In this document: in pieces, positions 11,788 to 45,800 of the stretch | Position numbering within the stretch: the first letter of the stretch is position 1 | Layout of the letters: every line of letters starts with the position of its first letter | Notes under the pieces: generated by a model | Databases searched by the model: none | Told to the model about the DNA's origin: nothing | Seen by the model: only the letters and a program-made list of their open reading frames with translations | Assembly (NCBI GenBank): GCA_043814055.1 | Contig: JBDRKL010000009.1 | Coordinates: 13,141-77,140, forward strand | Source: an archaeon | GTDB lineage: Archaea > Undinarchaeota > Undinarchaeia > Undinarchaeales > JBDRKL01 | Length of the DNA: 64,000 nucleotides | Reading direction: 5' to 3' | Translations under genes and position numbers: made by a program

Positions 11788-12171
11788 ATGGATGAAATCG
11801 TTCACTACATGCAGAAACTCGGATTGAACCTTTACCAGAGCAGGGCAATGGTTGTTCTGCTCGCAACAGGCGAGGCAGAAGCGAAGCAGATATGCGAGTG
11901 CTCAGGAGTTCCGTACACCAAGATATACCAAATATTGAAACAGCTGGAAGACAAAGGACTGATTGAGTATAAACTCAACAGCCCGAGGACTTACAAGCCG
12001 CGCGGGAGAAAAGCCGTGCTGAACAAGCTCGTGAGAAAAGAGGCAAGGCGCGTGACATATTTGGAGAATGAAAAAGAGCGCCAACTTCAAAAGATAGGAA
12101 GGCTTAAGCTTGGGGCAACAAAAGGAATTGAGCAAGTACACCCAGTGTTTAATTCAGAACCAGGATTCTAG
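11788..12171 (+). CDS. TrmB-like wHTH transcriptional regulator
   Basis: MQKLGLNLYQSRAMVVLLATGEAEAKQICECSGVPYTKIYQILKQLEDKGLIEY matches the TrmB N-terminal domain pattern. Confidence 0.65.
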   Translation: MDEIVHYMQKLGLNLYQSRAMVVLLATGEAEAKQICECSGVPYTKIYQILKQLEDKGLIEYKLNSPRTYKPRGRKAVLNKLVRKEARRVTYLENEKERQLQKIGRLKLGATKGIEQVHPVFNSEPGF

Positions 12172-13667
12172 AAAACCTTGCTCAGGAACCACTCAGCATC
12201 AAATGACTTCATGTCCGCGTAGCCCTGCCCAGTGCCGAAGTAGAGGATTGGAGCGTCTGTAACGTATGAGACCGAAATGCACGAGCCGCCCTTTGGGTCG
12301 CAGTCAACCTTTGTTAAGACCGAGCCGTCTATTCCGACTGCCTCGTGGAATGCCTTTGCCTGGTCTGCTGCGTCGTTTCCTGTGAGAGCGTCGCCAACGA
12401 AGATTTTGAGGTCAGGCTTGTTAACGCGCACGACCTTCTTGAGCTCGTCCATTAGGTTTATGTTGGTTCCTGAGCGGCCTGCGGTGTCTGCGAGAACGAC
12501 GTCAATCTTTCTTGCCTTTGCGTGCGCTATCGCGTCGTAAATCACAGCTGCTGAGTCAGAGCCGCGCACCTGCTTGATGATTGGAACATTAAGGTTCTTT
12601 GCGTGAACGTCTAGCTGCTCAATTGCCGCGGCGCGGAACGTGTCCCCTGCCGCCATAACAACTGAAAGCCCAGCGTCCTGGAGCATTTTCGCGAACTTGC
12701 CTATGGTCATTGTCTTGCCAGTGCCGTTGAAGCCGAAAAAGACAATCACATAGGGTTTGTCCTTCTTGGCCTTGATGAGCTTGATTATGTCCGGCTGCTC
12801 CTTGGTGAGTATTTTTTGCAGCGAGTCCTTGATTGCAGATTCAATCATTTGCTCAGGGCTCTTGCTTGAGGTCTCCTCTTCCATCAGGCGCGCCTTGGTT
12901 TCGGCGGTTATTGCCTCTGTGACTTCTTTTGCAATGTCGTTCTCAAGCAGGAGTAGTTCAAGCTCCCAGAGTATTTTATCAAGATTTTTCTCTGAGATTT
13001 TTTTGCGGGTGATGGAAAGAAAACGCTTTTTTGGCTTTTCAGGTTCTTTATCAGGCTCTTTTGGCTTCCTGAATCTTCCGAAGAAACCTTTCTTTTTTGG
13101 TTCTCCGCCTGCTCGCGGAGGTAGAGCGGAGGCATTCGCCCCTGGCGAAGCCTCTATCTTGGTTTCTTCTTTTACTTCGGGTTCAATTTCAGGTTCTGGA
13201 GTTGGTTCCTCTTCAACAATTGGTTCTGGCTCGGGTTCTTCTTCAGATTCCTCCTCTACCTCTGGTTCAGGCTCATCCTCAATTTCAGGTTCAGGCTTGG
13301 ACTCCGACTCGGATTCAGGTTCAGCAACTGGCTCTAGCTCTTCAGGTTTTTCAGGTTCTGGCTCAAGCTCGACCTTAACTTCAGGCTTGGGTTCTTCAAC
13401 CACCAGCTCAAGTTCCGGCTCAACCTGCCCCGGCTCAAGCTCGGCTTCAACCTCTTTTAGAATTTCGTCTTCAACCGCAGCCGCCTTTTTCTTTTCTTTC
13501 TTCGACTTCGTTTCCTTCTTCTTGGCTATTGGCGGTTGGCTCTTGGCTTTTGGCGCTTTAGGAACTTCCTCAACAACTTCGTCTACTGGCTCCTTTACCT
13601 CAACCTCAACTTCAGCTGAGGCCTTGGACAAAAAGCCCTTGAGCTTCTTCTTGAGATTTTCAAACAT
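12168..13667 (-). CDS. ftsY: SRP receptor FtsY with an N-terminal extension of about 200 aa rich in acidic Glu/Pro
   Basis: GFNGTGKTMT (G1), DTAGR, TKVD motifs in an NG domain. The N-terminal E/P/K low-complexity region contains repeat copy A. Confidence 0.9.
   Translation of the reverse strand: MFENLKKKLKGFLSKASAEVEVEVKEPVDEVVEEVPKAPKAKSQPPIAKKKETKSKKEKKKAAAVEDEILKEVEAELEPGQVEPELELVVEEPKPEVKVELEPEPEKPEELEPVAEPESESESKPEPEIEDEPEPEVEEESEEEPEPEPIVEEEPTPEPEIEPEVKEETKIEASPGANASALPPRAGGEPKKKGFFGRFRKPKEPDKEPEKPKKRFLSITRKKISEKNLDKILWELELLLLENDIAKEVTEAITAETKARLMEEETSSKSPEQMIESAIKDSLQKILTKEQPDIIKLIKAKKDKPYVIVFFGFNGTGKTMTIGKFAKMLQDAGLSVVMAAGDTFRAAAIEQLDVHAKNLNVPIIKQVRGSDSAAVIYDAIAHAKARKIDVVLADTAGRSGTNINLMDELKKVVRVNKPDLKIFVGDALTGNDAADQAKAFHEAVGIDGSVLTKVDCDPKGGSCISVSYVTDAPILYFGTGQGYADMKSFDAEWFLSKVF
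13103..13152 (-). repeat. PE-1 copy A: 50-bp two-hairpin repeat, in-frame inside ftsY
   Basis: Minus strand reads ggcttcgccaggggcgaatgcctccgctctacctccgcgagcaggcggag. It matches copy B at 43/50 and copy C at 42/50. It encodes PGANASALPPRAGGE. Confidence 0.8.
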
Positions 13668-13697: not shown

Positions 13698-14120
13698 CTA
13701 TTTCTTCTTCGCCTGCATCGTCTGTAGGTATGCCTGAAGCTCCGGCTCAAGCGCGCCAAGGCGCTCGCCCATCTTCTTTATCTGCCCCTCAAGCTTTGCC
13801 CTGCCGTCTGTAAGTGTCTCCAGCTGCGTTCCGATTGACTCCACAGCGTCGCTGACCTTTTTCTCAACCACAACACCAGCGCCGACGCCAGTTAAAACAT
13901 AGCCCTTGTCCTTGAGGTCTGCCATAACAAATGAGTTGCCGCCAAGCGGCACCATAATCTCAGAGTCCTTTGCGCCCTTCAGGCTCTCTATGGTGTTCTT
14001 CGCAGCCAGAAGCTCCATCTCGACTCCGCCCATCGCGTTTAGTTCCTGAATAAGACTTTCGATTTGGGTTTTTAAAATAGTGTATTCAGCGTACTTTTGT
14101 TGGAATTCTTCTTCCTTCAT
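13698..14120 (-). CDS. pfdA: Prefoldin alpha subunit
   Basis: 140 aa, coiled coil / beta hairpins / coiled coil, in the canonical position between rplX and ftsY. Confidence 0.8.
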   Translation of the reverse strand: MKEEEFQQKYAEYTILKTQIESLIQELNAMGGVEMELLAAKNTIESLKGAKDSEIMVPLGGNSFVMADLKDKGYVLTGVGAGVVVEKKVSDAVESIGTQLETLTDGRAKLEGQIKKMGERLGALEPELQAYLQTMQAKKK

Positions 14121-14479
14121 TCTCCGGCTGCTCCCGGAGGGTGAGCGGAGGCATTCGCATCCGGCGAAGCCGCTTTATTATCTCCTTTTTCCTTAGGCGC
14201 ACCTTCGTGCGCTGCTTCTTTTTCCCTGACTGAGGTGCCTTCTGCTTTTAACATCCCTTTCTTTGCCTTTGCCGGCAGAACTTTCTTTGCTTCTGGCTTG
14301 AACTCCTCAACTTTCTCAATCTTTATTTGAGCTCGCTTTATCCCGTGATTTGAGCCAACCAATGAATAGACCTTGTCAAGCGCGCGTGCTTCTTTAAGTT
14401 CGGTAACTTCCTTGGTAAAAATCTGCTTATTTCCACGCTGTACAAAACTTCCTATGATTCTAAAATGTTTAACACTCAT
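14117..14479 (-). CDS. rplX: Ribosomal protein LX (L18Ae/L20A family) with a C-terminal extension
   Basis: MSVKHFRIIGSFVQRGNKQIFTKEVTELKEARALDKVYSLVGSNHGIKRAQIKIEKVEEF followed by a tail of about 45 aa. The last 17 codons are repeat copy B. Confidence 0.75.
   Translation of the reverse strand: MSVKHFRIIGSFVQRGNKQIFTKEVTELKEARALDKVYSLVGSNHGIKRAQIKIEKVEEFKPEAKKVLPAKAKKGMLKAEGTSVREKEAAHEGAPKEKGDNKAASPDANASAHPPGAAGE
14122..14171 (-). repeat. PE-1 copy B: forms the C-terminal codons of rplX
   Basis: Minus strand reads ggcttcgccggatgcgaatgcctccgctcaccctccgggagcagccggag. It encodes PDANASAHPPGAAGE and ends 2 nt before the rplX stop / pfdA start overlap. Confidence 0.8.
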
Positions 14480-14489
14480 TTTGAATTTT

Positions 14490-14555
14490 CCTCCACTTCA
14501 TCAGCTTTAAAATAAACACGAAGCTGATTGACCTGCGTTATTGCTTTGCGTCTCA
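14490..14555 (-). promoter_or_regulatory. E-element copy E1 (conserved leader cassette) upstream of rplX
   Basis: Sense strand: gagacgcaaagcaa-N15-CAGCTTcgtgtttattttAAAGCTG-atgaagtggaggaaaattcaaaATG. Confidence 0.6.
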
Positions 14556-14561
14556 TTATAT

Positions 14562-15101
14562 TTACCTGAGCTTGATCACTGCTCTGCCGTTTTCATCTTC
14601 GCCAATCACAACTCGAAGCTGATATGGCGGTTTCTTGCGGCCGCGCTCCCAGATTTTCTCGTTTACTTCCTTTGTGATTACGACTTTGTCCGCCTTGGTG
14701 TGCTTCTTTGCGAACGCCTTGAGCATAGAAATTGTGTATCGCGCTTTCTTGCCCCTTACTGCGTTATTCCTAAGCGGGATTGTGTAAAGGTGGTCAGTGC
14801 CCTTGAGCCTGGTTGGCTTGACATTCTTCGGCGCAGCCTTGGATTCCTTGAGCTCGCTGATGGTGTCCATTGCGCGCTCCACAACCGTGCCCTTCTTCTT
14901 TGGCTGCGGCTTTGCCTTTGCCTCTTTCTTATCCTTGACTGCTGGCTCTTCCTTTGAGGCAGCCTTTGGCTTAGCCTTCTCTTCTTCTGCCGCTGCAGAC
15001 TGACGCTTCGCGTCAGTTGCACGCTTGACTTCGTCAAGCTGTGCCTCTGCCTGAGCTTCTTTCAGAATTTCATCTTCTACACTTGCTTTATCTTTAGCCA
15101 T
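14562..15101 (-). CDS. rpl31e: Ribosomal protein L31e with an N-terminal Lys/Ala/Glu-rich extension of about 90 aa
   Basis: YTIPLRNNAVRGKKARYTISMLKAFAKKHTKADKVVITKEVNEKIWERGRKKPPYQLRV is the L31e core. Confidence 0.85.
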   Translation of the reverse strand: MAKDKASVEDEILKEAQAEAQLDEVKRATDAKRQSAAAEEEKAKPKAASKEEPAVKDKKEAKAKPQPKKKGTVVERAMDTISELKESKAAPKNVKPTRLKGTDHLYTIPLRNNAVRGKKARYTISMLKAFAKKHTKADKVVITKEVNEKIWERGRKKPPYQLRVVIGEDENGRAVIKLR

Positions 15102-15224
15102 TTCAAAGTCTCCTAATCTTCATCTGCTTTGAAACTTCGGACGCGGGGCGTCCGAGGCACACACACTTCGTGTGTGATGTGCAGACGAAGCTGAAATTAT
15201 TTAACATGCTTTGTCTCGTCATGA
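15102..15224 (-). promoter_or_regulatory. E-element copy E3 upstream of rpl31e, carrying a nested double-hairpin insertion
   Basis: The flanks match E1 (gacaaagca...tcagcttcgt / gtttcaaagcagatgaagattaggagactttgaaATG). The interior at 15138..15154 and 15160..15176 holds two perfect 7-bp hairpins. Confidence 0.6.
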
Positions 15225-18557: not shown

Positions 18558-19379
18558 ATGATGGAATCATACTACGAAAAACCAGGATTTAAGCTATATC
18601 ACTCGGATTCGTTTGAACTTTTGAAGGATTTGCCAGAGAATTCTGTAGATATGATTTTTGCCGATCCACCATATTTCCTTTCAAACGGCAGTTTCACATG
18701 TCAAAATGGAAAAATGGTTAGCGTAAAGAAAGGAAATTGGGACATGGGCAATGGCACAAAACAAGATTTTGATTTTCATTTGGATTGGCTAAACGCTTGC
18801 AGGAGAGTCCTAAAGCCAAATGGAACAATTTGGATTAGCGGAACATACCACTCAATTTACCAGTGCGGCTTTGCACTACAAATGAATAATTTCCACATTT
18901 TGAATGATATTGCCTGGTTTAAGCCTAACGCCTCACCTAATTTGAGCTGCAGATTCTTTACCGCTAGCCACGAAACCCTAATTTGGGCTCGCAAGAATAA
19001 GGAAGCAAAGCACACTTTTAATTATGATATTACTAAAACCGGAAACTGGCCTGAAGACCAGTTAAAAAAAGAGGGGTTACAGATGCGCTCTGTTTGGTCA
19101 ATACCAACGCCCAAGCCACAGGAGAAAACCTTCGGCAAACACCCAACGCAAAAGTCATTGGATCTGCTGAGAAGAATTGTATTAGCAAGCACTAACAAGG
19201 GCGATTTGATTCTTGATCCTTTTACAGGAAGCTCCACAACAGGTCTGGCTGCCCATATGTATGGAAGGGATTTTATTGGAATTGACAATGAACAAAAATA
19301 TCTAGATCTATCCATTAAACGCTTTGAAGAACTGGAAAATAATCTAAAAAAAGAGAAAACCACCGGCGGTTTGATATGA
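18558..19379 (+). CDS. N6-adenine DNA methyltransferase, DpnA (M2.DpnII)-like, beta class
   Basis: SVDMIFADPPYFLSNG...LKPNGTIWISG...PNLSCRFFTASHETLIWARK...GKHPTQKSLDLLRRIVLASTNKGDLILDPFTGSSTTG is near-collinear with DpnA as I recall it. Confidence 0.85.
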   Translation: MMESYYEKPGFKLYHSDSFELLKDLPENSVDMIFADPPYFLSNGSFTCQNGKMVSVKKGNWDMGNGTKQDFDFHLDWLNACRRVLKPNGTIWISGTYHSIYQCGFALQMNNFHILNDIAWFKPNASPNLSCRFFTASHETLIWARKNKEAKHTFNYDITKTGNWPEDQLKKEGLQMRSVWSIPTPKPQEKTFGKHPTQKSLDLLRRIVLASTNKGDLILDPFTGSSTTGLAAHMYGRDFIGIDNEQKYLDLSIKRFEELENNLKKEKTTGGLI

Positions 19380-20293
19380 AAAAAATTGAATTTTATGAAA
19401 AGACGCTAAAATGCAACACAGCGGATGAAGTTTTTAACCACATTATTTCAACTTTTAAACCAAGCATACTTACATGGTCTTATTTTGTGAATTGGGATAA
19501 GGTTTTTCAGAACACGAAAGATATTGAGATAGGGCTTAACAAACTAAATTATCTAATCGGCAAAGAGGATTTTGATAAAGAATTCAGATATCTAATAAAA
19601 AAAGAGGCAGAGCTTCTAAAAATCATTCCAGCACTGGTTGTGAGGGATGGTCAGAACACTTTAAAATTCAAAATTTTGGTTGATTACAGTCAAAAAAAGA
19701 TGGTGTATGAAGAATATGACTTTAACAAAGATACTTTAACAGACGAGAATATTGAAAAGTGCCTGACTTTTGTTAAGGAAACTGGCTTGAAAAAATTGAT
19801 TACCTCCGGAAGTATCAAAAATTTAGTGGATTATATGATTGGGGTTGAGGCAGGATTGGACAGCAATGGACGAAAAAACCGTTCCGGCAGTGCAATGGAA
19901 AACATTGTTGAAATGTTCATAAAAGACATTTGCAACAGGAAGAACTTCAGATATTTAAGGCAGGCAGATGCAAAAAAGATCAAAGAAGAGTTTGGATACG
20001 ATGTCCCGGTTGACAAGTCATCAAGAAGGTATGATTTTGTAATTGACACTGGAAAAGAGCTTGTCCTTTTTGAAACAAACTTTTACGGCGGCGGTGGCTC
20101 AAAACTAAAATCAACAGCAGGCGAGTACAGAAATCTGTTTGACATACTTGAAGACAAATACAAATTTATTTGGATTACAGACGGACTTGGCTGGAAAACA
20201 ACTCAAAAACCGTTGCGAGAAACATTTGAGCATAATGATTATCTGTTTAATTTGGATATGCTGGAAAAAAAGGTATTAGATGTAGTGTTGTAG
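19376..20293 (+). CDS. Type II restriction endonuclease, DpnII/MboI (GATC) family
   Basis: LVDYMIGVEAGLDSNGRKNRSGSAMENIVE...RYDFVI...LFETNFYGGGGSKLKSTAGEY...FIWITDGLGWKTTQKPLRETF matches the R.DpnII pattern. 4-bp overlap with the methyltransferase gene. Confidence 0.85.
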   Translation: MKKIEFYEKTLKCNTADEVFNHIISTFKPSILTWSYFVNWDKVFQNTKDIEIGLNKLNYLIGKEDFDKEFRYLIKKEAELLKIIPALVVRDGQNTLKFKILVDYSQKKMVYEEYDFNKDTLTDENIEKCLTFVKETGLKKLITSGSIKNLVDYMIGVEAGLDSNGRKNRSGSAMENIVEMFIKDICNRKNFRYLRQADAKKIKEEFGYDVPVDKSSRRYDFVIDTGKELVLFETNFYGGGGSKLKSTAGEYRNLFDILEDKYKFIWITDGLGWKTTQKPLRETFEHNDYLFNLDMLEKKVLDVVL

Positions 20294-23551: not shown

Positions 23552-24874
23552 TTATCCACGCAGCTCTTTCATATGGTCAATGCGCTTCTGCACCAGCTCT
23601 GGCTTGCCAATGTCAGGCCTGTAGAACAATTTGTCGCACTGCACGGATGAGATTGCAGACTCTGCGATTTTCTCAGCTTCTTCAATCGTGTCTGCGAAGC
23701 CTGTGATTCCAAATGAGCGCGATGTGCTTGTGTAAAGCTCGCCATCTTTCAGGTCAACTGAGGCGTAGTAGAGCTTTGCGCCGAGCCGCGTGATTTCTTC
23801 CTCGTCAATTGAGACCTTTGCGCCTGACTCAGGGCTCTCAGGGTAGCCTGTTGGGACAAGGTACTTGCAGACCGAGGCAAGATTTTCAAACTCAATAACT
23901 TTTGGCAAACTACCCTCAAGCATTGACTGGCACAGGAAGCTGAAATCGGTCTTGAGTAATGGGAGAATGTTCATCGCTTCCGGGTCGCCGAAGCGCACGT
24001 TGTATTCAATAATTTTTGGTCCGTCCTTTGTGAGCATAAACTGCCCGTAGAGAACGCCCTTGTAAATTGTTCCGGTTCTTTTCTTCAGCGCAGCGATTGT
24101 GCGCTTCATAATGTCAAGCGCTTCGTCAACATCTTTCTGCTCAAGAAAAGGCAATAGGTGATTTGCGTCAGAGTATGAGCCCATTCCGCCTGTCATCGGT
24201 CCTGTGTCGCCCTCGTGCGCCTGCTTGTGGTCCTGCACAAGTGGAAGCGGAACAACTTCTGTGCCGTCTGTGAAAACATGGAGCGTGAACTCCTCCCCAA
24301 CGAGTTTTTCCTCAATTACCACAACGCCTGAGCCGCCAATTTGGTTCTCAACAACCTCAAGCGCGTAGTCCCGCGCCTCATACAAGTCCCTGAGCTGCTG
24401 ACCCATGACCTTGACGCCCTTGCCGCCGGTGAGCCCTGCGGGCTTGATGACTATTTCTGTGTCAAATTCCTGAATCGCTTTGAGAACATCCTCGCGGTTG
24501 GAGCACACGCGGAACTTGGGGTAGCCGCCGTCAAGATGCTCCTGCATCAGGTCGCGGCAGAACGCCTTGTCAGACTCAAGCCGGGCTGCAGCGCTTGTCG
24601 GACCAACCACGCCAAAGCCGTTCTTCTGCAATTCATCCCCAACGCCTTTAGCAAGCGGGTCCTCAGGGCCGATGAAAATGTAGTCAGGCTTCACGTGGAG
24701 CGCGTATTTCAAAACTGCTTTTGAATTATTAATGTCGCCGAGTTCGTGACCTTTTGCAAGCGCCATTATGCCAGGGTTGCGGGCCTTCATAAACGCGTAG
24801 AGCTCTGAGCCCTTTGCCATCTGCTCAGCAAGCGCGTGTTCACGCGCTCCGTTGCCTATTAGGAGGGATTTCAA
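23552..24874 (-). CDS. purD: GAR synthetase (TTG start)
   Basis: MKSLLIGNGAREHALA and an ATP-grasp body. The start lies inside E-element E2. Confidence 0.9.
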   Translation of the reverse strand: MKSLLIGNGAREHALAEQMAKGSELYAFMKARNPGIMALAKGHELGDINNSKAVLKYALHVKPDYIFIGPEDPLAKGVGDELQKNGFGVVGPTSAAARLESDKAFCRDLMQEHLDGGYPKFRVCSNREDVLKAIQEFDTEIVIKPAGLTGGKGVKVMGQQLRDLYEARDYALEVVENQIGGSGVVVIEEKLVGEEFTLHVFTDGTEVVPLPLVQDHKQAHEGDTGPMTGGMGSYSDANHLLPFLEQKDVDEALDIMKRTIAALKKRTGTIYKGVLYGQFMLTKDGPKIIEYNVRFGDPEAMNILPLLKTDFSFLCQSMLEGSLPKVIEFENLASVCKYLVPTGYPESPESGAKVSIDEEEITRLGAKLYYASVDLKDGELYTSTSRSFGITGFADTIEEAEKIAESAISSVQCDKLFYRPDIGKPELVQKRIDHMKELRG

Positions 24875-24879
24875 AGCTT

Positions 24880-24944
24880 CACCGCCCTTAACAGCTTTGA
24901 AATAAACGCGAAGCTGTATAACAAATTTCTTGCTTTGCGTTTCA
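24880..24944 (-). promoter_or_regulatory. E-element copy E2 between purF and purD
   Basis: Sense strand: gaaacgcaaagcaa-N16-CAGCTTcgcgtttatttcAAAGCTG-ttaagggcggtgaagcTTTGaaa. Confidence 0.6.
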
Positions 24945-24946
24945 CT

Positions 24947-26392
24947 TCAATTGTCCTCCCCGCGCTCGCACTTCCTGCACTTGTCAAGAAGGTCTGCGTA
25001 TTTTTTAATATCAGTTGGGTATTCCCCGTTTAGGCAGGCAAGGCAGAGGTTTTCCTTTGGCATTCCGGTTGACTCCACGAGGCCGTCAATTGTCTGGTAA
25101 GTGAGGGAGTCTGCTCCGATTTTCTTTGCGATTTCATCAACCGACAGCCCAGAAGCTATGAGCTCATCCTTAGTTGGGAAGTCAACGCCGTAGTAGCACG
25201 GCTCTGTGAGCGGCGGGCAGGAGCTGAGGAAGTGTACTTCCTTTGCGCCGACTTCGCGGAGCATTTGGATTATGCGCTTTGAAGTTGTGCCGCGGACAAT
25301 GCTGTCGTCAACGAGCGCAACGCGCTTCCCGCTGATTTCTTTGATTACAGGATTGAGCTTTGTGCGCACAGCGCTTTCCCTGTTTTTCTGAGTAGGCATT
25401 AAGAATGTTCTCCCCACGTAGCGGTTCTTGATAAGGCCTTCGCGATATGGGACTCCGATTTCAGTTGCAAAAGTTAGCGCAGCTGTTCGGGAAGTGTCTG
25501 GCGCAGGTATTACAACATCAACTTCAATCTTCTTTTTCATCCACTCCTTGGCAAGCATCCTGCCGAGCTCAAGCCGAGCTTCGTAAACGCCGTGCTTTTC
25601 TATAACAGAGTCAGGCCGTGCGAAGTAGACCCATTCAAACATGCAGTGCCTGCGCTGTTCTTTTTTTATGCTTTTTGTAGTGACTACTCCGTCCTTGGAA
25701 ATGAACACTGCTTCGCCGGGCTCTAAATCTTTAACAACCTTGTAGCCGAGTACGTCAAGCACAACGGTTTCGGATGCAAATATGTGTTGATCTTTTCCAT
25801 CAACCACGCGCTTGCCCCAGATGATTGGCCTTATGCCGTGCGGGTCGCGGAAAGCGAGCAGGCCTTCGCGCGCGATAAGCGTTACTACAGAATAGCTACC
25901 GTTCAGGCGCTCCATTGTTTTTGAAATTGCGTCAAATATGATTTCAGGGTTGAGGCCGTTGCCGTTTGCTTTTGAAAGCTCGGTCGCGAAGAGCTTGAGT
26001 ATGAGTTCAGCATCGCAGTTAGTGCGTATCTGCCTGTGGCACTCACCCATCAGGTGCTTGCGGAGCTCGTCGTAGTTCACTGTGTTTCCGTTGTGCGCCA
26101 TCCCAATGCCATATGGGTAGCCGGTCTGGATTGGCTGGGCGTCCCTGCGCACGTCAGAGCCGATGGTGGGGTAGCGCACGTGGCCGATGCCAATATTGCC
26201 TTTGAGTTCGTGCAGGTTCACGCTGTTGAAGCATTCTGATACAAGCCCTGGGCCTTTCTTCATGTGAAGCGCATCACCATCAAAAGTTAGAATTCCACAG
26301 CCATCCTGCCCGCGGTGCTGTATCTGCAGCAATCCATTGAATAGCTCAAATGCAACATTTTCCGGGCCAATGATTCCTATAAATCCGCACAT
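24947..26392 (-). CDS. purF: Amidophosphoribosyltransferase
   Basis: N-terminal MCGFIGI (Ntn Cys), PRTase motif VALVDDSIVRGTT, C-terminal Cys cluster. Confidence 0.9.
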   Translation of the reverse strand: MCGFIGIIGPENVAFELFNGLLQIQHRGQDGCGILTFDGDALHMKKGPGLVSECFNSVNLHELKGNIGIGHVRYPTIGSDVRRDAQPIQTGYPYGIGMAHNGNTVNYDELRKHLMGECHRQIRTNCDAELILKLFATELSKANGNGLNPEIIFDAISKTMERLNGSYSVVTLIAREGLLAFRDPHGIRPIIWGKRVVDGKDQHIFASETVVLDVLGYKVVKDLEPGEAVFISKDGVVTTKSIKKEQRRHCMFEWVYFARPDSVIEKHGVYEARLELGRMLAKEWMKKKIEVDVVIPAPDTSRTAALTFATEIGVPYREGLIKNRYVGRTFLMPTQKNRESAVRTKLNPVIKEISGKRVALVDDSIVRGTTSKRIIQMLREVGAKEVHFLSSCPPLTEPCYYGVDFPTKDELIASGLSVDEIAKKIGADSLTYQTIDGLVESTGMPKENLCLACLNGEYPTDIKKYADLLDKCRKCERGEDN

Positions 26393-32578: not shown

Positions 32579-32624
32579 AATTATTGATGGTCGAGGTTAT
32601 ATAAAAGGATTTCTTTGAGATAGG

Positions 32625-32674
32625 GGCTTCGCCGAAGGTGAATGCCCCAGCTTTACCTCCGCAAGCAGGCGGAG
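32625..32674 (+). repeat. PE-1 copy C, intergenic, inverted relative to copies A and B
   Basis: ggcttcgccgaaggtgaatgccccagctttacctccgcaagcaggcggag, lying between two TATA-like boxes upstream of pyrG. Confidence 0.8.
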
Positions 32675-32685
32675 ATATAAAAGAC

Positions 32686-37556: not shown

Positions 37557-37704
37557 TGGGCCCGTGGTCTAGTGGCTATGACGTCTCCCTTACAACCCTT
37601 TTGCTTCGCAAAAGCGTTGACGGAAAAGAAACCGTCTTCGCGGCGATTGGAGCACGAGGGAAAGAACGGAGAAGTTCACAGGTTCGACTCCTGTTGGGCC
37701 CACC
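37557..37704 (+). tRNA. tRNA-Val (UAC) with a 72-nt intron at the canonical 37/38 site (37594..37665), CCA encoded
   Basis: GGGCCCGTGGTCTAGTGGCTATGACGTCTCCCTTACA[intron]CGGAGAAGTTCACAGGTTCGACTCCTGTTGGGCCCACCA. Confidence 0.8.
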
Positions 37705-38163: not shown

Positions 38164-38319
38164 CATTAGAGCATAGAATACTCGGCACGGGCTCGTCCGC
38201 AACCTTTTTCTATGCTCTGTTGAAGTGATTACTCTGGTTAAAAAAGCTTGACCAAAAACACAGTCCCGCGCCAAGAGCTTGATGCAGCGGGACTACCAGG
38301 CAAATTGAGCGCCACCATA

Positions 38320-38348: not shown

Positions 38349-38627
38349 CCCGGTACAGGCTAGGCCGGGAGAGTAGCAGTCTCCCTTTCTCAAATCTGCT
38401 TTAGGAGGGCTGAATGCCGGTGTGAGTTGCAGTATTGGGGGAGTCGTCTTGGGCTCTGGCGTCGAAGCCTCGTCCTGCGGGACTGACTGCCCTGCTAACC
38501 GGGTCAGATGGGGAACCAAGCAGCCCTACACAGGGCGCGTTGGTGCTCGCGGGTTCGCGGGGTGGAGCCTCTGCTCAAGGTCAGCGGCTTTCTTAGTATT
38601 GCAGCGAGCTCCGGATGCCTGTGCCAC
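38349..38627 (+). ncRNA. Signal recognition particle RNA (archaeal 7S)
   Basis: The 5' GGTACAGGCTAGGCCGGG pairs with the 3' CCGGATGCCTGTGCC. The internal CCGGGTCAGATGGGGAACCAAGCAGCC resembles the conserved helix-8 SRP54-binding motif. An oligo-T run (38632..38636) follows. The ends are approximate, about +/-5 nt. Confidence 0.75.
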
Positions 38628-38741
38628 AAACTTTTTATTGATTATATTTGTGAAAAAAGCTTGACCAAAAAACTCGCTTCAGCACACAGCGCTTACGCGC
38701 CGTGTGTCTCTACATGCTTCGCATGTAGACCGCTCGGCAGT

Positions 38742-41603: not shown

Positions 41604-41704
41604 AGCCCCGTAGTGTAGCGGCCAAGCACTCCGGCCTTTGACCTGTGTTTGATAAAAACTCAGGAAGACAGCCGGTAACGGCAGTTCGAATCTGCCCGGG
41701 GCTA
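41604..41704 (+). tRNA. tRNA-Gln (UUG) with a 28-nt intron at 37/38 (41642..41669)
   Basis: AGCCCCGTAGTGTAGCGGCCAAGCACTCCGGCCTTTGA[intron]AGCCGGTAACGGCAGTTCGAATCTGCCCGGGGCTA. Confidence 0.8.
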
Positions 41705-41705
41705 C

Positions 41706-43064
41706 TCAAAATTTAGTGGTTAGTATTTTTTGCTTTTTTGCATAGAGAGTGATAAGAAAGTTTAATTTTTGTTTCCATTTATGTGATTTAAAATCAGCAG
41801 GGTATATTTCTATAAGTTTGCTTTGAAACCCTAGTTTTTGATACAGAGGTAACTTAACCTCAATAGTTTTGATGTCATAAAATTCCTTTCCAGCAAGCCC
41901 CCAAATTTCAACCCAGTGCTGTCCTATTTTAAAATCCGTACGAGATTTTGGGTCTGTTTTAGATTTGGATATTCTCACCCCAACTTGATGGGAAATGCCA
42001 TTATAAAATAGCCAATTGTCAACAACACGCTCATAAGTAGAATTAACCATATGGCCATCTTTACATACTAATTTCTCTGTGTAACCGAATAGAGAGGCTC
42101 GTATAGGGATATTATATTCTTTTAGCCACCTTATTACAGAAGTAGAAGCAACTCCACAGGATAATGCAATCTCATAAGAAGATAGTTTATCATTTAAATA
42201 CCATCCAATAAGCTCAGTTCTAGTAGGCTTATATGAATTAAATAATCGGGTCTCACTAGAGGTTCTTGATTCAACCCTATATCTTTTTAATAAGTTTGAA
42301 ATGGACACATCACTAATGTTGTACATATTTGCTATCTGGCATATAGAGAATCCCTTTTTAACATATAGGTCTTGCAATTCTTGTTTAATGGGGAACTTTG
42401 CGTCTTTTTTGAGATTTCGGGAACCCCCTTTTCGGATAGGTATACCATATTTTTTTAACCATCTAGCAACACTGCCCTTGGTAACTCTGCAGATTTTTGC
42501 AATTTTAATAGTTGATTGATGTTCATCTAGATACCACTGTTCTAATTCTTTTTTTGAAGGCACATACGATTTAAAAAGACGAGTTTCAATACCTTTTCTT
42601 GCTGTTATCCCATATTTTTTCAGATAATCGGCAATCGTAGATGGATCGATATTACATAGTTTTCCTATCTTCAAAACAGATAAACCTTGAACTAAATACC
42701 AATCTTGAAGTTCTTCTTGAGTAGGCATATGAGCATTTGATTTAAGATTTGCTTCAGAAGCAGAACGGATAGAGACTTTGTATTTTTTTAATAGGCGTCC
42801 AATAACTGAACGGGATACACCATATTTTTTTGCTATTATTAGAGGATGTACTCTTTGTGTCAGATACATTGCCTCTAATTCACTTTTGGACGGAAGAACA
42901 ACCCCTTCGTTTAAACGTGCCTCAGAGGGCGTCCTTACTAAATTTCTTTTTTTTAGAAATTGCCAAACAAAACCCTGAGAAACATTTAAGATTTTTGCAA
43001 TCTCGTGTGTTGTTTTTCTTTTAGTTATATATAAGTCGATAATTTGTTTCTCATCAATTTCCAT
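41706..43064 (-). CDS. Six tandem HTH modules plus a C-terminal PD-(D/E)xK-like nuclease domain (homing-endonuclease-like)
   Basis: Six repeats of about 57 aa of the form P-x-x-x-EL-x-x-WY...S...IA..[YC].V[ST]...[IV]..[WL]LKKY.I..R. The C-terminus STYERVVDNWLFYNGISH...RTDFKIGQHWVEIWG resembles the Vsr/DUF559-type D...E-x-K core. Strongly AT-rich by eye. Its stop lies 2 nt from the tRNA-Gln 3' end. Confidence 0.6.
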   Translation of the reverse strand: MEIDEKQIIDLYITKRKTTHEIAKILNVSQGFVWQFLKKRNLVRTPSEARLNEGVVLPSKSELEAMYLTQRVHPLIIAKKYGVSRSVIGRLLKKYKVSIRSASEANLKSNAHMPTQEELQDWYLVQGLSVLKIGKLCNIDPSTIADYLKKYGITARKGIETRLFKSYVPSKKELEQWYLDEHQSTIKIAKICRVTKGSVARWLKKYGIPIRKGGSRNLKKDAKFPIKQELQDLYVKKGFSICQIANMYNISDVSISNLLKRYRVESRTSSETRLFNSYKPTRTELIGWYLNDKLSSYEIALSCGVASTSVIRWLKEYNIPIRASLFGYTEKLVCKDGHMVNSTYERVVDNWLFYNGISHQVGVRISKSKTDPKSRTDFKIGQHWVEIWGLAGKEFYDIKTIEVKLPLYQKLGFQSKLIEIYPADFKSHKWKQKLNFLITLYAKKQKILTTKF

Positions 43065-44879: not shown

Positions 44880-45016
44880 GGTAAAAAGTAGTGTATTTGC
44901 TTATTTATACCCTCCTAGAAAAACAAAAAGCTTAAAAACAATCAAGTATAGACATACTGCGTTAGGACACTTTTTCTCAAAGTTAGTCCACTGAGCGGGA
45001 GAATAATCAAATGGCA

Positions 45017-45086
45017 CAACAAAGCCTGACAAGGCACACCAGCTTTGTGTGGATTTCAAAGCTGGATAAAAAGGAGGAACTTTGAA
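45017..45086 (+). promoter_or_regulatory. E-element copy E4 upstream of the FKBP gene
   Basis: cacaacaaagcc-N14-CAGCTTtgtgtggatttcAAAGCTG-gataaaaaggaggaactttgaaATG. The hairpin-to-ATG spacing of 22 nt is the same as in E1 and E3. Confidence 0.6.
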
Positions 45087-45800
45087 ATGGCAGAAAAGAT
45101 ACAGGAAGGGGATTTCATCACAATAGATTACATTGGGCGTGTCAAGGACACGGGAATGATTTTTGACCTCACGAATGAGGAGATTGCGAAAAAGGAAGGC
45201 CTGAACACAGAGGGTACGGTTTACGGCCCTGTCACGGTTGTTGTAGGAGCTAGGCATGTTGTGCCTGGGCTTGACAAACAGCTCAGCTCGCTCAGCGTGG
45301 GGGAGAAGAAAAAGATTGACATTGAATCAGCTGATGCATTCGGCAGCAAGGACGCTGAACTCGTGAAGCTCGTTCCAATGAATGTTTTCAAGAGGCAGAA
45401 GGTGAACCCGATTCCGGGAATGCCTGTTGAGCTTGAAAGGCAGAAGGGAATTGTGAAATCAGTGAGCGGCGGCCGCGTTAAAGTGGATTTCAATCACCCG
45501 CTTGCTGGAAAAACACTGGAATATGAGGTTGAGGTCAAGGGAAAAATAATCAAGGCTGAGGAGCAGGTTAGAAGCATACTCAAACTGCACGTGCCAAGTG
45601 TTGAAATTAAGGACGTCAAGATAGCGGTTACGGAAAAAGAAGTTGAAATTAGCACGCCGAATGAGATGCAAACCAGAAGGTATATAAACCTAACAGAGGA
45701 AATAACTGCACGAGATATACTTAAGTACGTCAAGGGGGCAAATCGCGTGCGGTTTGTTGATGTATTTGAAAAGGGAGAATCTAATATTAAAAACTCTTAG
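45087..45800 (+). CDS. FKBP-type peptidyl-prolyl isomerase (long archaeal SlyD-like type)
   Basis: GDFITIDYIGRVKDTGMIFD...GPVTVVVGARHVVPGLDKQL...VKVDFNHPLAGKTLEYEVEV. Confidence 0.8.
   Translation: MAEKIQEGDFITIDYIGRVKDTGMIFDLTNEEIAKKEGLNTEGTVYGPVTVVVGARHVVPGLDKQLSSLSVGEKKKIDIESADAFGSKDAELVKLVPMNVFKRQKVNPIPGMPVELERQKGIVKSVSGGRVKVDFNHPLAGKTLEYEVEVKGKIIKAEEQVRSILKLHVPSVEIKDVKIAVTEKEVEISTPNEMQTRRYINLTEEITARDILKYVKGANRVRFVDVFEKGESNIKNS

Follow-up and report, generated by a model that had tools for sequence, protein, structure and literature searches.

A dispersed repeat ending at four start codons of an Undinarchaeales-like archaeon is probably a MIRU-like insertion element

Why do four genes in one stretch of archaeal DNA carry the same module directly in front of their start codons? 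The stretch in question, hereafter the window, comprises 64,000 nucleotides of contig JBDRKL010000009.1 (positions 13,141 to 77,140, assembly GCA_043814055.1). It is archaeal, with an archaeal signal recognition particle (SRP) RNA at 38353-38624 and 46.8% G+C, and its proteins are closest to those of metagenome-assembled genomes (MAGs) labelled Candidatus Undinarchaeales. The initial annotation, made from the letters alone, had described a hairpin, a Shine-Dalgarno (SD) motif and a start codon as a conserved leader cassette in front of four genes. One homologous module of ~70 nt, termed E here, is indeed found at the starts of LX, purD, L31e and the FKBP gene, at or near the positions given there. 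The sample is these four copies in one 64-kb window of one MAG. As described below, E is probably a dispersed insertion element of an Undinarchaeales-like archaeon that landed on four start codons, that compensates for its own presence in translation, and that resembles the MIRUs (mycobacterial interspersed repetitive units). The four copies are located as follows.

14476..14556, minus strand: E1, at the start of LX
15103..15222, minus strand: E3, between L39e and L31e
24871..24945, minus strand: E2, between purF and purD
45011..45092, plus strand: E4, at the start of the FKBP gene

Three of the copies (E1, E2 and E3) lie between cistrons, as had been proposed, and E4 lies in a 5′ untranslated region (UTR). 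E3 and E1 belong to one minus-strand operon, in the order S19e, dsDNA-binding protein, DUF7411, L39e, E3, L31e, E1, LX, prefoldin alpha and FtsY. E4 is located between a conserved promoter with its 5′ UTR and the FKBP gene. The ftsZ gene follows 12 nt past FKBP, an order conserved in relatives, so that E4 does not head a monocistronic gene, contrary to the earlier description.

All copies are oriented in the sense of the gene that they precede, and each ends at its start codon. The shared blocks are arranged in the order CAAAGC, a spacer of 14-16 nt, CAGCTTYG, a loop, TTYAAAGCWG, a stretch of ~16 nt, RCTTTG and the start codon. Depending on the copy, the ~16-nt stretch holds GGAGG, AGGAG or GGTGA; the GGAGG that the initial annotation had assigned to every copy is replaced by GGTGA in E2, and the end of E1, given there as TTTGAAATG, actually reads TTCAAAATG. 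The TTG start of purD is supplied by E2, as had been recognized. The core measures ~68 nt, and the distance from the start of a small open reading frame (ORF) described below to the start of the gene is 75-81 nt, or 120 nt in E3, which contains a nested insert. The cores are pairwise 62-71% identical. The hexamers and the palindrome arms are intact across the four copies, and the spacers are essentially unalignable. Four CAAAGC hexamers per element, separated by 16-18, 9 and 16-17 nt, alternate in orientation, which makes the element dyad-symmetric. Of the two halves, only the end hexamers are common to both; the spacers of 14-16 nt are not complementary.

The common origin of the copies is evident from several comparisons. 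The pattern CAAAGC-N12-18-CAGCTTYG matches the window five times (expectation from 100 shuffles, 0.04), namely at the four copies and at the reverse complement of the right half of E2. The copies score 70-91 bits with a covariance model, the palindromes of E1 and E2 are identical at 23 of 25 bases, and the homology reaches 50 nt upstream of the SD motif. Neither an nhmmer profile nor the covariance model detected a fifth copy in the window. The longer pattern CAAAGC-N12-18-CAGCTTYG-N5-30-TTYAAAGCWG gave chance matches only in genome (29 loci), metagenome (27 loci) and viral (2 loci) contigs, none of which was E-like when checked with nhmmer. Some of these matches (L013-L016, L019, L023, L025, L028, L031 and L033) represent an unrelated abundant repeat in two Dehalococcoidia genomes (MAGs), which reads CAAAGCTRAG..CCAGCTTTGAGGTC..ATTTAAAGCTG and is flanked by short repeats of the CTGCCGCACCTGCCGC type.

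Each copy also forms a small ORF of 24-39 codons, which was overlooked in the initial annotation. The small ORFs, their stops and the SD motifs contributed by the element are listed here.

Within 14476..14556, minus strand: small ORF of E1, encoding MRRKAITQVNQLRVYFKADEVEENSK; its ATG lies 5 nt past the L31e stop, with AGGT 7 nt upstream
14476-14479, minus strand: stop of the E1 small ORF; TGA overlaps the LX start as ATGA
14490..14494, minus strand: GGAGG of E1, 10 nt upstream of the LX ATG
Within 24871..24945, minus strand: small ORF of E2, encoding VKRKARNLLYSFAFISKLLRAVKL; its GTG lies 1 nt past the purF stop, with GGAGG 9 nt upstream
24871-24874, minus strand: stop of the E2 small ORF; TGA overlaps the purD TTG start as TTGA
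24879-24883, minus strand: GGTGA of E2, upstream of the purD TTG
Within 15103..15222, minus strand: small ORF of E3, encoding MTRQSMLNNFSFVCTSHTKCVCLGRPASEVSKQMKIRRL; its ATG lies 2 nt past the L39e stop, with a native GGTGA 6 nt upstream
Minus strand, 1 nt ahead of the L31e ATG: stop of the E3 small ORF (TGAAATG)
15110-15114, minus strand: AGGAG of E3, upstream of the L31e ATG
45011..45085, plus strand: small ORF of E4, encoding MAQQSLTRHTSFVWISKLDKKEEL; its start is the native FKBP ATG, and GGGAG lies 9 nt upstream of it
Plus strand, 1 nt ahead of the new FKBP ATG at 45087: stop of the E4 small ORF (TGAAATG)
45073-45077, plus strand: GGAGG of E4, upstream of the new FKBP ATG

The positions of these starts and stops should be noted. 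By comparison with relatives, each small ORF begins at the former start codon of the host gene, with the SD motif that belonged to it. In E1, E2 and E3 this start lies 5, 1 and 2 nt past the stop of the preceding gene, respectively. The frames are open across the whole element, including the nested insert of E3, and reach the host gene with stop/start spacings of −4 (E1), −4 (E2), +1 (E3) and +1 (E4), where the SD motif of the element itself is found 4-10 nt upstream of the start. Two different frames are used. E1, longer by 1 nt, differs from E2-E4 in its frame and in its stop (ATGA). The distance from the ORF start to the stem is 5 + 15 nt in E2 and 6 + 14 nt in E3 and E4. Judging from these sequences, the upkeep of the frame despite insertions and deletions looks selected. 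When the ORF bodies were shuffled, they stayed open in 12-23% of the trials per copy, giving a product of 5e-4, which is an upper bound on significance since the copies are related. Beside E2, the purF frame beyond its TGA is open through the element and in frame with purD (24871-24949, minus strand), and readthrough of this single stop would yield a PurF-E2-PurD fusion, which is probably a coincidence.

The sites of insertion were compared with the orthologous junctions in relatives. The loci L001, L062 and L066 overlap one another and hence represent one organism, the nearest genome compared (PurD 79%, FKBP 67% and L31e 52% identical to the window). The purF-purD junction was compared in three genomes (PurD 79, 70 and 67% identical) and the FKBP site in two. 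In L001, L39e and L31e are joined as TAA-GC-ATG with a 2-nt gap and no E3, and L31e and LX overlap by 4 nt as ATGA with no E1. The purF and purD genes overlap by 4 nt (L062), 4 nt (L064) or 1 nt (L065), with no E2. At the FKBP site, the window can be aligned with L066 and L067 through the promoter box AAAG(C/T)TTAAAAAC and the 5′ UTR up to AATGRCA, past which the window carries 76 extra bases as a clean gap against both relatives. The features of this site are as follows.

44927..44939, plus strand: native promoter-like box AAAGCTTAAAAAC of the FKBP-ftsZ unit, upstream of E4, conserved in L066 and L067
45009..45016, plus strand: left direct repeat AAATGGCA of E4, containing the FKBP start codon; the right copy is at 45085-45092
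45017..45092, plus strand: the E4 insertion relative to L066 and L067, 76 nt, consisting of a 68-nt core CAACAAAGCC...GGAACTTTG and the second copy of the 8-nt target AAATGGCA

With all four orthologous sites uninterrupted in relatives, the copies are lineage-specific insertions. Insertion in the lineage of the window would be the parsimonious course, since the alternative needs repeated precise loss. Neither nhmmer nor the covariance model detected E-like sequence in 123 kb of the relatives' DNA, as compared with four copies in the 64 kb of the window, and the notion of a conserved leader cassette is not borne out. The flanks of E4 match at 8 of 8 positions (AAATGGCA, present once in relatives) and those of E1 at 6 of 6 (AATGAG; 7 of 8 when extended), suggesting that target duplication is likely at E4 and E1. 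The flanks of E2 have TGAAA in common, and those of E3 only ATG and scattered matches. Terminal inverted repeats are CAAAGC/GCTTTG in E2 (6 bp) and CAAAG/CTTTG in E3 and E4 (5 bp).

These observations suggest how an insertion at a start codon could be borne. The insertion would duplicate a few target bases, among them the start codon. From the ribosome-binding site and start codon that the gene originally used, a short ORF would then open, traverse the element from end to end and terminate either on the regenerated start codon or 1 nt ahead of it, where the element would supply its own SD motif 4-10 nt upstream. Ribosomes would keep the inserted RNA covered, so that polarity is avoided, and would reinitiate, or be freshly recruited, on the host gene, so that expression is restored. 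Under this model, insertion even into an essential, tightly coupled operon junction would be nearly harmless. The geometry has precedents. In Haloferax and E. coli, termination-reinitiation is supported by ATGA and TTGA overlaps and by stops and starts placed very close together (Huber et al. 2019, PMC6728339; PMC12548453). Untranslated RNA probably triggers FttA-dependent polarity in archaea (review PMC12548453). Archaeal overlapping gene pairs have the same geometry as E; in E, however, the upstream partner is an insertion-made ORF of 24-39 codons rather than a gene. From the arrangement of starts, stops and SD motifs, we infer that the small ORFs are translated and coupled to the host genes, a coupling that would render the copies tolerable. 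The element presumably is or was mobile, and its palindrome and four alternating hexamers would form the recognition structure of a mobilizing agent rather than a host regulatory RNA.

Several points weigh against an insertion element of this kind. There are only four copies, which are old (62-71% identity) and come from one MAG, and the nearest relative is fairly distant (L31e 52%, PurD 79%), which leaves the insertions without a date. The direct repeats are convincing for E4 and E1 only, and part of their identity is forced, because a start codon is required on either side. The inverted repeats at the termini measure just 5-6 bp, and E1 has none. Moreover, the blocks are intact while the spacers are saturated, which neutral decay would not give and which indicates a constraint in place. 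This block pattern points to a host-level function or gene conversion; candidates for the constraint are recognition by the mobilizing enzyme along a lineage of master copies, a DNA-binding protein, gene conversion and a role of the RNA. Finally, a Pfam scan of 48 window proteins gave no transposase gene or domain. A 452-aa protein of repeated helix-turn-helix (HTH) domains (HTH_23, HTH_28, HTH_29, HTH_38) is encoded at 41706-43064 (minus strand), adjoining a tRNA gene that presumably contains an intron. Its matches to HTH domains of the IS630 and ISL3 transposases are weak, and it lacks a catalytic domain. Judging from these domains, it is possibly a domesticated DNA-binding protein, and it is the only lead in the window toward a partner transposase.

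A further-reaching proposal can be offered only tentatively, namely that E is an active or recently active DPANN mobile element that homes to translation starts and is made translationally transparent by its open frame, its own SD motif and its stop on the regenerated start. If so, it would represent an independent archaeal invention of the MIRU strategy, and the four CAAAGC hexamers would be putative sites of a recombinase or DNA-binding protein. In a bolder variant, the hexamer pairings 1:2 plus 3:4 versus 2:3, read out by translation of the small ORF, would make E a transposable translational attenuator.

Other explanations start from the palindrome, whose copies differ as listed here together with the insert that interrupts it in E3.

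14500..14528, minus strand: E1 palindrome, ATCAGCTT / AAGCTGAT, 8 bp; loop CGTGTTTATTTTA, TATA-like, 37 to 30 nt upstream of the LX ATG
24891..24917, minus strand: E2 palindrome, ACAGCTT / AAGCTGT, 7 bp; loop CGCGTTTATTTCA
45039..45065, plus strand: E4 palindrome, CCAGCTTTG / CAAAGCTGG, 9 bp; loop TGTGGATTT, not TATA-like
15135..15185, minus strand: nested loop insert of E3, net +45 nt (15 codons), in frame and stop-free

The arms are far better conserved than the spacers. The CAGCTT/AAGCTG stem, said to be retained throughout, is kept in E1, E2 and E4; in E3 the 3′ arm is AAGCAG, giving an uncompensated A·A mismatch, and an alternative stem uses the nested insert. This insert, previously described as 50 nt, is present with the net addition of 45 nt listed above. 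It contains two G+C-rich hairpins, CACACAC/GTGTGTG and TCGGACGC/GCGTCCGA, has no second copy in the window and is not homologous to the D6 repeat described below. In the four-sequence alignment, one of the ten stem pairs covaries (U:A twice, A:U, C:G), with a covariation score of 0.217 that is matched by 32 of 500 shuffles; the relatives, which lack the module, add nothing to the covariation check that had been proposed. The z-scores of the RNA folds are 0.08 (E1), −1.34 (E2) and −1.70 (E4), and that of E3 (−3.45) is due to the nested insert. The E2 hairpin is not part of the minimum-energy fold. Rfam 15 gave no match at the gathering threshold, and permissive scans of the four E regions gave sub-threshold chance matches only (CRISPR-DR20, 21.9 bits; mir-30, 21.2 bits). 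Of the proposed structural element, the union of palindrome, SD motif and start codon in one homologous module stands, whereas support for a structured RNA is weak.

Could E nevertheless be a host cis-regulatory leader, in which an mRNA hairpin controls translation, processing or stability of the downstream gene, possibly through alternative pairings among the four CAAAGC/GCTTTG hexamers, and which was recruited or spread for that purpose? We consider this unlikely. It would explain why arms and hexamers are kept in all copies next to spacers diverged beyond recognition, and it is consistent with the three Watson-Crick pair types at the stem base (T:A, A:T, C:G), the lengthening of the E4 stem to 9 bp by a C-to-T change, the hairpin-ATG distance fixed at 22 nt in three copies (E1, E3 and E4, correctly measured in the initial annotation) and the SD motif between hexamers 3 and 4, whose pairing would enclose it. 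However, the four genes have no function in common, the covariation is not significant, the fold z-scores are 0.08 to −1.7, the E2 hairpin is not in the minimum-energy fold, E3 combines its mismatch with a 45-nt loop insert, and Rfam holds no match. The module is also missing from the same genes in all relatives compared, and so is not needed for their expression.

A mobile promoter is somewhat less probable still. Here the palindrome would be a TATA box between a transcription factor B recognition element (BRE) and an inverted BRE, acting as an internal, possibly bidirectional archaeal promoter of near-leaderless transcripts. Promoters of this genome have the form (A)AGC plus TTTATATA; in first genes they lie ~36 to 27 nt upstream of the start codon, and such boxes also precede tRNA and SRP RNA genes. 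The E1 loop TTTATTTT, 37 to 30 nt upstream of the LX ATG, and the E2 loop TTTATTTC, 32 to 25 nt upstream of the purD TTG, fit this geometry, the antisense strands (AGCTTTAAAATAAA in E1, AGCTTTGAAATAAA in E2) are even more promoter-like, and the Neisseria REP2 and Borrelia IR repeats, with promoter, ribosome-binding site and ATG, are precedents (PMC3184786). Only E1 and E2 have a TATA-like loop, however; in E4 (TGTGGATTT) and E3 (interrupted) it is not so, and a promoter is therefore not what the family conserves. The outcome by which the initial annotation would have been refuted, a mere duplicated promoter, does not hold. E4, moreover, lies downstream of the conserved native promoter of FKBP-ftsZ and needs none of its own. 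A transcription start ~24 nt past the TATA would drop the SD motif of the element and leave purD with a leaderless TTG start, and the sense-strand TATA is 6 nt away from AGC instead of adjacent. Promoter activity is a possible extra of one subfamily and not a common property. That the small ORFs encode a functional family of 24-39-aa proteins is very improbable: they are open, have SD-like motifs 6-9 nt upstream and proper stops, and E2, E3 and E4 have the motif ..SF.(F/W)ISKL.. in common, but conservation tracks DNA blocks and not codons, E3 tolerates a 15-residue insert, and the ORFs are missing in relatives. The E1 peptide, read in the other frame, is unrelated to the others despite the homology of the underlying DNA; it is thus the openness of the frame that is maintained and not a protein, and a peptide family is rejected. 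Convergence of gene-start contexts (SD motif, A-rich spacer, ATG) with no common origin can hardly be entertained. Native starts do look alike in this lineage, for example GAATAATCA(A)ATGGC at L31e and FKBP; the pattern count, nhmmer and the covariance model, together with the near-identical E1 and E2 palindromes and the extent of the homology, refute it.

Two other candidates were rejected. An intron with bulge-helix-bulge ends, whose splicing would re-create the junction, finds no support: the predicted folds have no helix-bulge-helix-bulge-helix where the element begins and ends, and complementarity between the exon flanks is lacking. An IS200/IS605-type or REPIN-type element is not supported, as there is one real hairpin and the halves are not complementary; E also differs from REP/REPIN in having no G+C-rich palindrome doublet that forms one long hairpin.

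For the preferred explanation, that of a self-compensating insertion element, the closest parallel is found in the MIRUs of mycobacteria (Supply et al. 1997, as summarized in PMC3184786, section 9, and PMC12548453, section 11). In these summaries, MIRUs are intercistronic units of 40-100 bp with ORFs overlapping their neighbours, with filled and empty sites and with short direct repeats, and the interpretation given is that of a mobile element whose insertion at start codons does no harm thanks to −4-nt coupling. As far as these accounts go, both MIRU and E are dispersed repeats of 40-100 bp between operon genes and in the orientation of the genes. In both, a small ORF overlaps or abuts, at its two ends, the stop of one neighbour and the start of the other (−4 nt), and both show filled versus empty sites between related genomes and internal inverted repeats; the short direct repeats of MIRUs have convincing parallels in E4 and E1 only. 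The differences should also be noted. E has an archaeal (DPANN) host, sequence homology to MIRUs is not expected across domains, and it occurs as a single unit per locus, not as a tandem array of variable repeat number. Its direct repeat reaches 8 nt against the 4 nt given for MIRU in those sections, two copies have the +1 spacing (TGAAATG), and it has a strong GGAGG of its own, dyad symmetry with four CAAAGC hexamers and one copy in a 5′ UTR. With no tandem arrays and no expected homology, E is placed as working like MIRUs, not as a member of the same family.

Further comparisons are more distant. Neisseria REP2 and Borrelia IR resemble E as repeats directly upstream of unrelated genes, with a ribosome-binding site, an ATG and internal stem-loops (PMC3184786, sections 11-12), but REP2 carries a demonstrated bacterial promoter and coordinates the regulation of its genes (PMC3184786). 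In E, a promoter is at best suggested in two of the four copies, and three copies lie inside operons. Among archaea, the SM1-SM4 elements of Sulfolobus are miniature inverted-repeat transposable elements (MITEs). E is like MITEs, such as the Correia elements of Neisseria (PMC3184786, section 4), in being small, multicopy and without transposase coding, with target-site-like duplications, empty sites in relatives and the capacity to carry expression signals. E differs from them in its inverted repeats of 5-6 bp, missing in E1, in the lack of an identified partner insertion sequence, in its exact placement at start codons and in the same orientation of all copies relative to the gene. No archaeal counterpart surfaced in searches of the literature on mobile promoters, on Undinarchaeota and on MITEs with start codons or translational coupling, which is not proof of absence.

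Besides E, the window holds another family of dispersed repeats, D6, whose units measure ~60-80 nt and are 82-87% identical in their core.

13090-13171, minus strand: D6 copy
14109-14190, minus strand: D6 copy
32618-32675, plus strand: D6 copy

The two hairpins of D6, GGCTTCGCC..GCGAATGCC and CTCCG..CGGAG, are G+C-rich. Coding sequence holds two of the copies in frame, as ASPGANASALPPRAGGE in FtsY, where D6 is a 20-residue insertion relative to L001, and as ASPDANASAHPPGAAGE in the tail of LX; the third is intergenic, ~40 nt upstream of pyrG. D6 resembles the in-frame palindromic elements of Rickettsia (RPEs), and its in-frame insertion in FtsY indicates that this genome tolerates such insertions.

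Other features near the four copies and elsewhere in the window are recorded here. L31e (14562-15101, minus strand) has an N-terminal Lys/Glu/Ala-rich extension of ~85 residues, as it also has in the relative, and in FtsY (12168-13667, minus strand) a long acidic region of Pro/Glu repeats varies in length. Many archaea encode eIF6 between L31e and LX; in the L39e-L31e-LX operon of the window and of the relative alike, no gene lies between the two. The FKBP-ftsZ 5′ UTR (44960-45000, plus strand; 9690-9730 in L066) contains a hairpin-like stretch, GGACACTTTTTCTCAAAGTTAGTCC in the window and GGGCACTCTTTTTCCCAAAGTTTGTCC in L066, which may be a genuine conserved leader. A near-identical box, TGATTA..AAAAAAGCTTGACCAAAAA, flanks the SRP RNA gene on both sides (38226-38258 and 38639-38671, plus strand). 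Rfam detected two tRNA genes of 145 nt (37558-37702, plus strand) and 101 nt (41604-41704, plus strand), not reported by ARAGORN, which presumably contain introns. The stretch 18558-20293 (plus strand) encodes a restriction-modification pair of the DpnII type, in which an N6_N4 DNA methylase precedes a DpnII endonuclease.

DPANN genomes are tiny and densely packed, with many genes linked through an overlap of stop and start codons. A repeat able to insert at such junctions and leave expression unbroken shows how selfish DNA can persist with almost no neutral space. E-type elements create unannotated small ORFs and shift apparent intergenic distances, and can thereby mislead the prediction of operons and start sites in metagenome-assembled genomes. 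The E cassette is also a natural "ribosome delivery" module and a candidate for archaeal expression systems. The strategy of reading through an insertion and restarting on the gene has been known until now from mycobacteria. E would be the archaeal counterpart of their MIRUs, suggesting that insertion at start codons with maintained ribosome flow evolved more than once.

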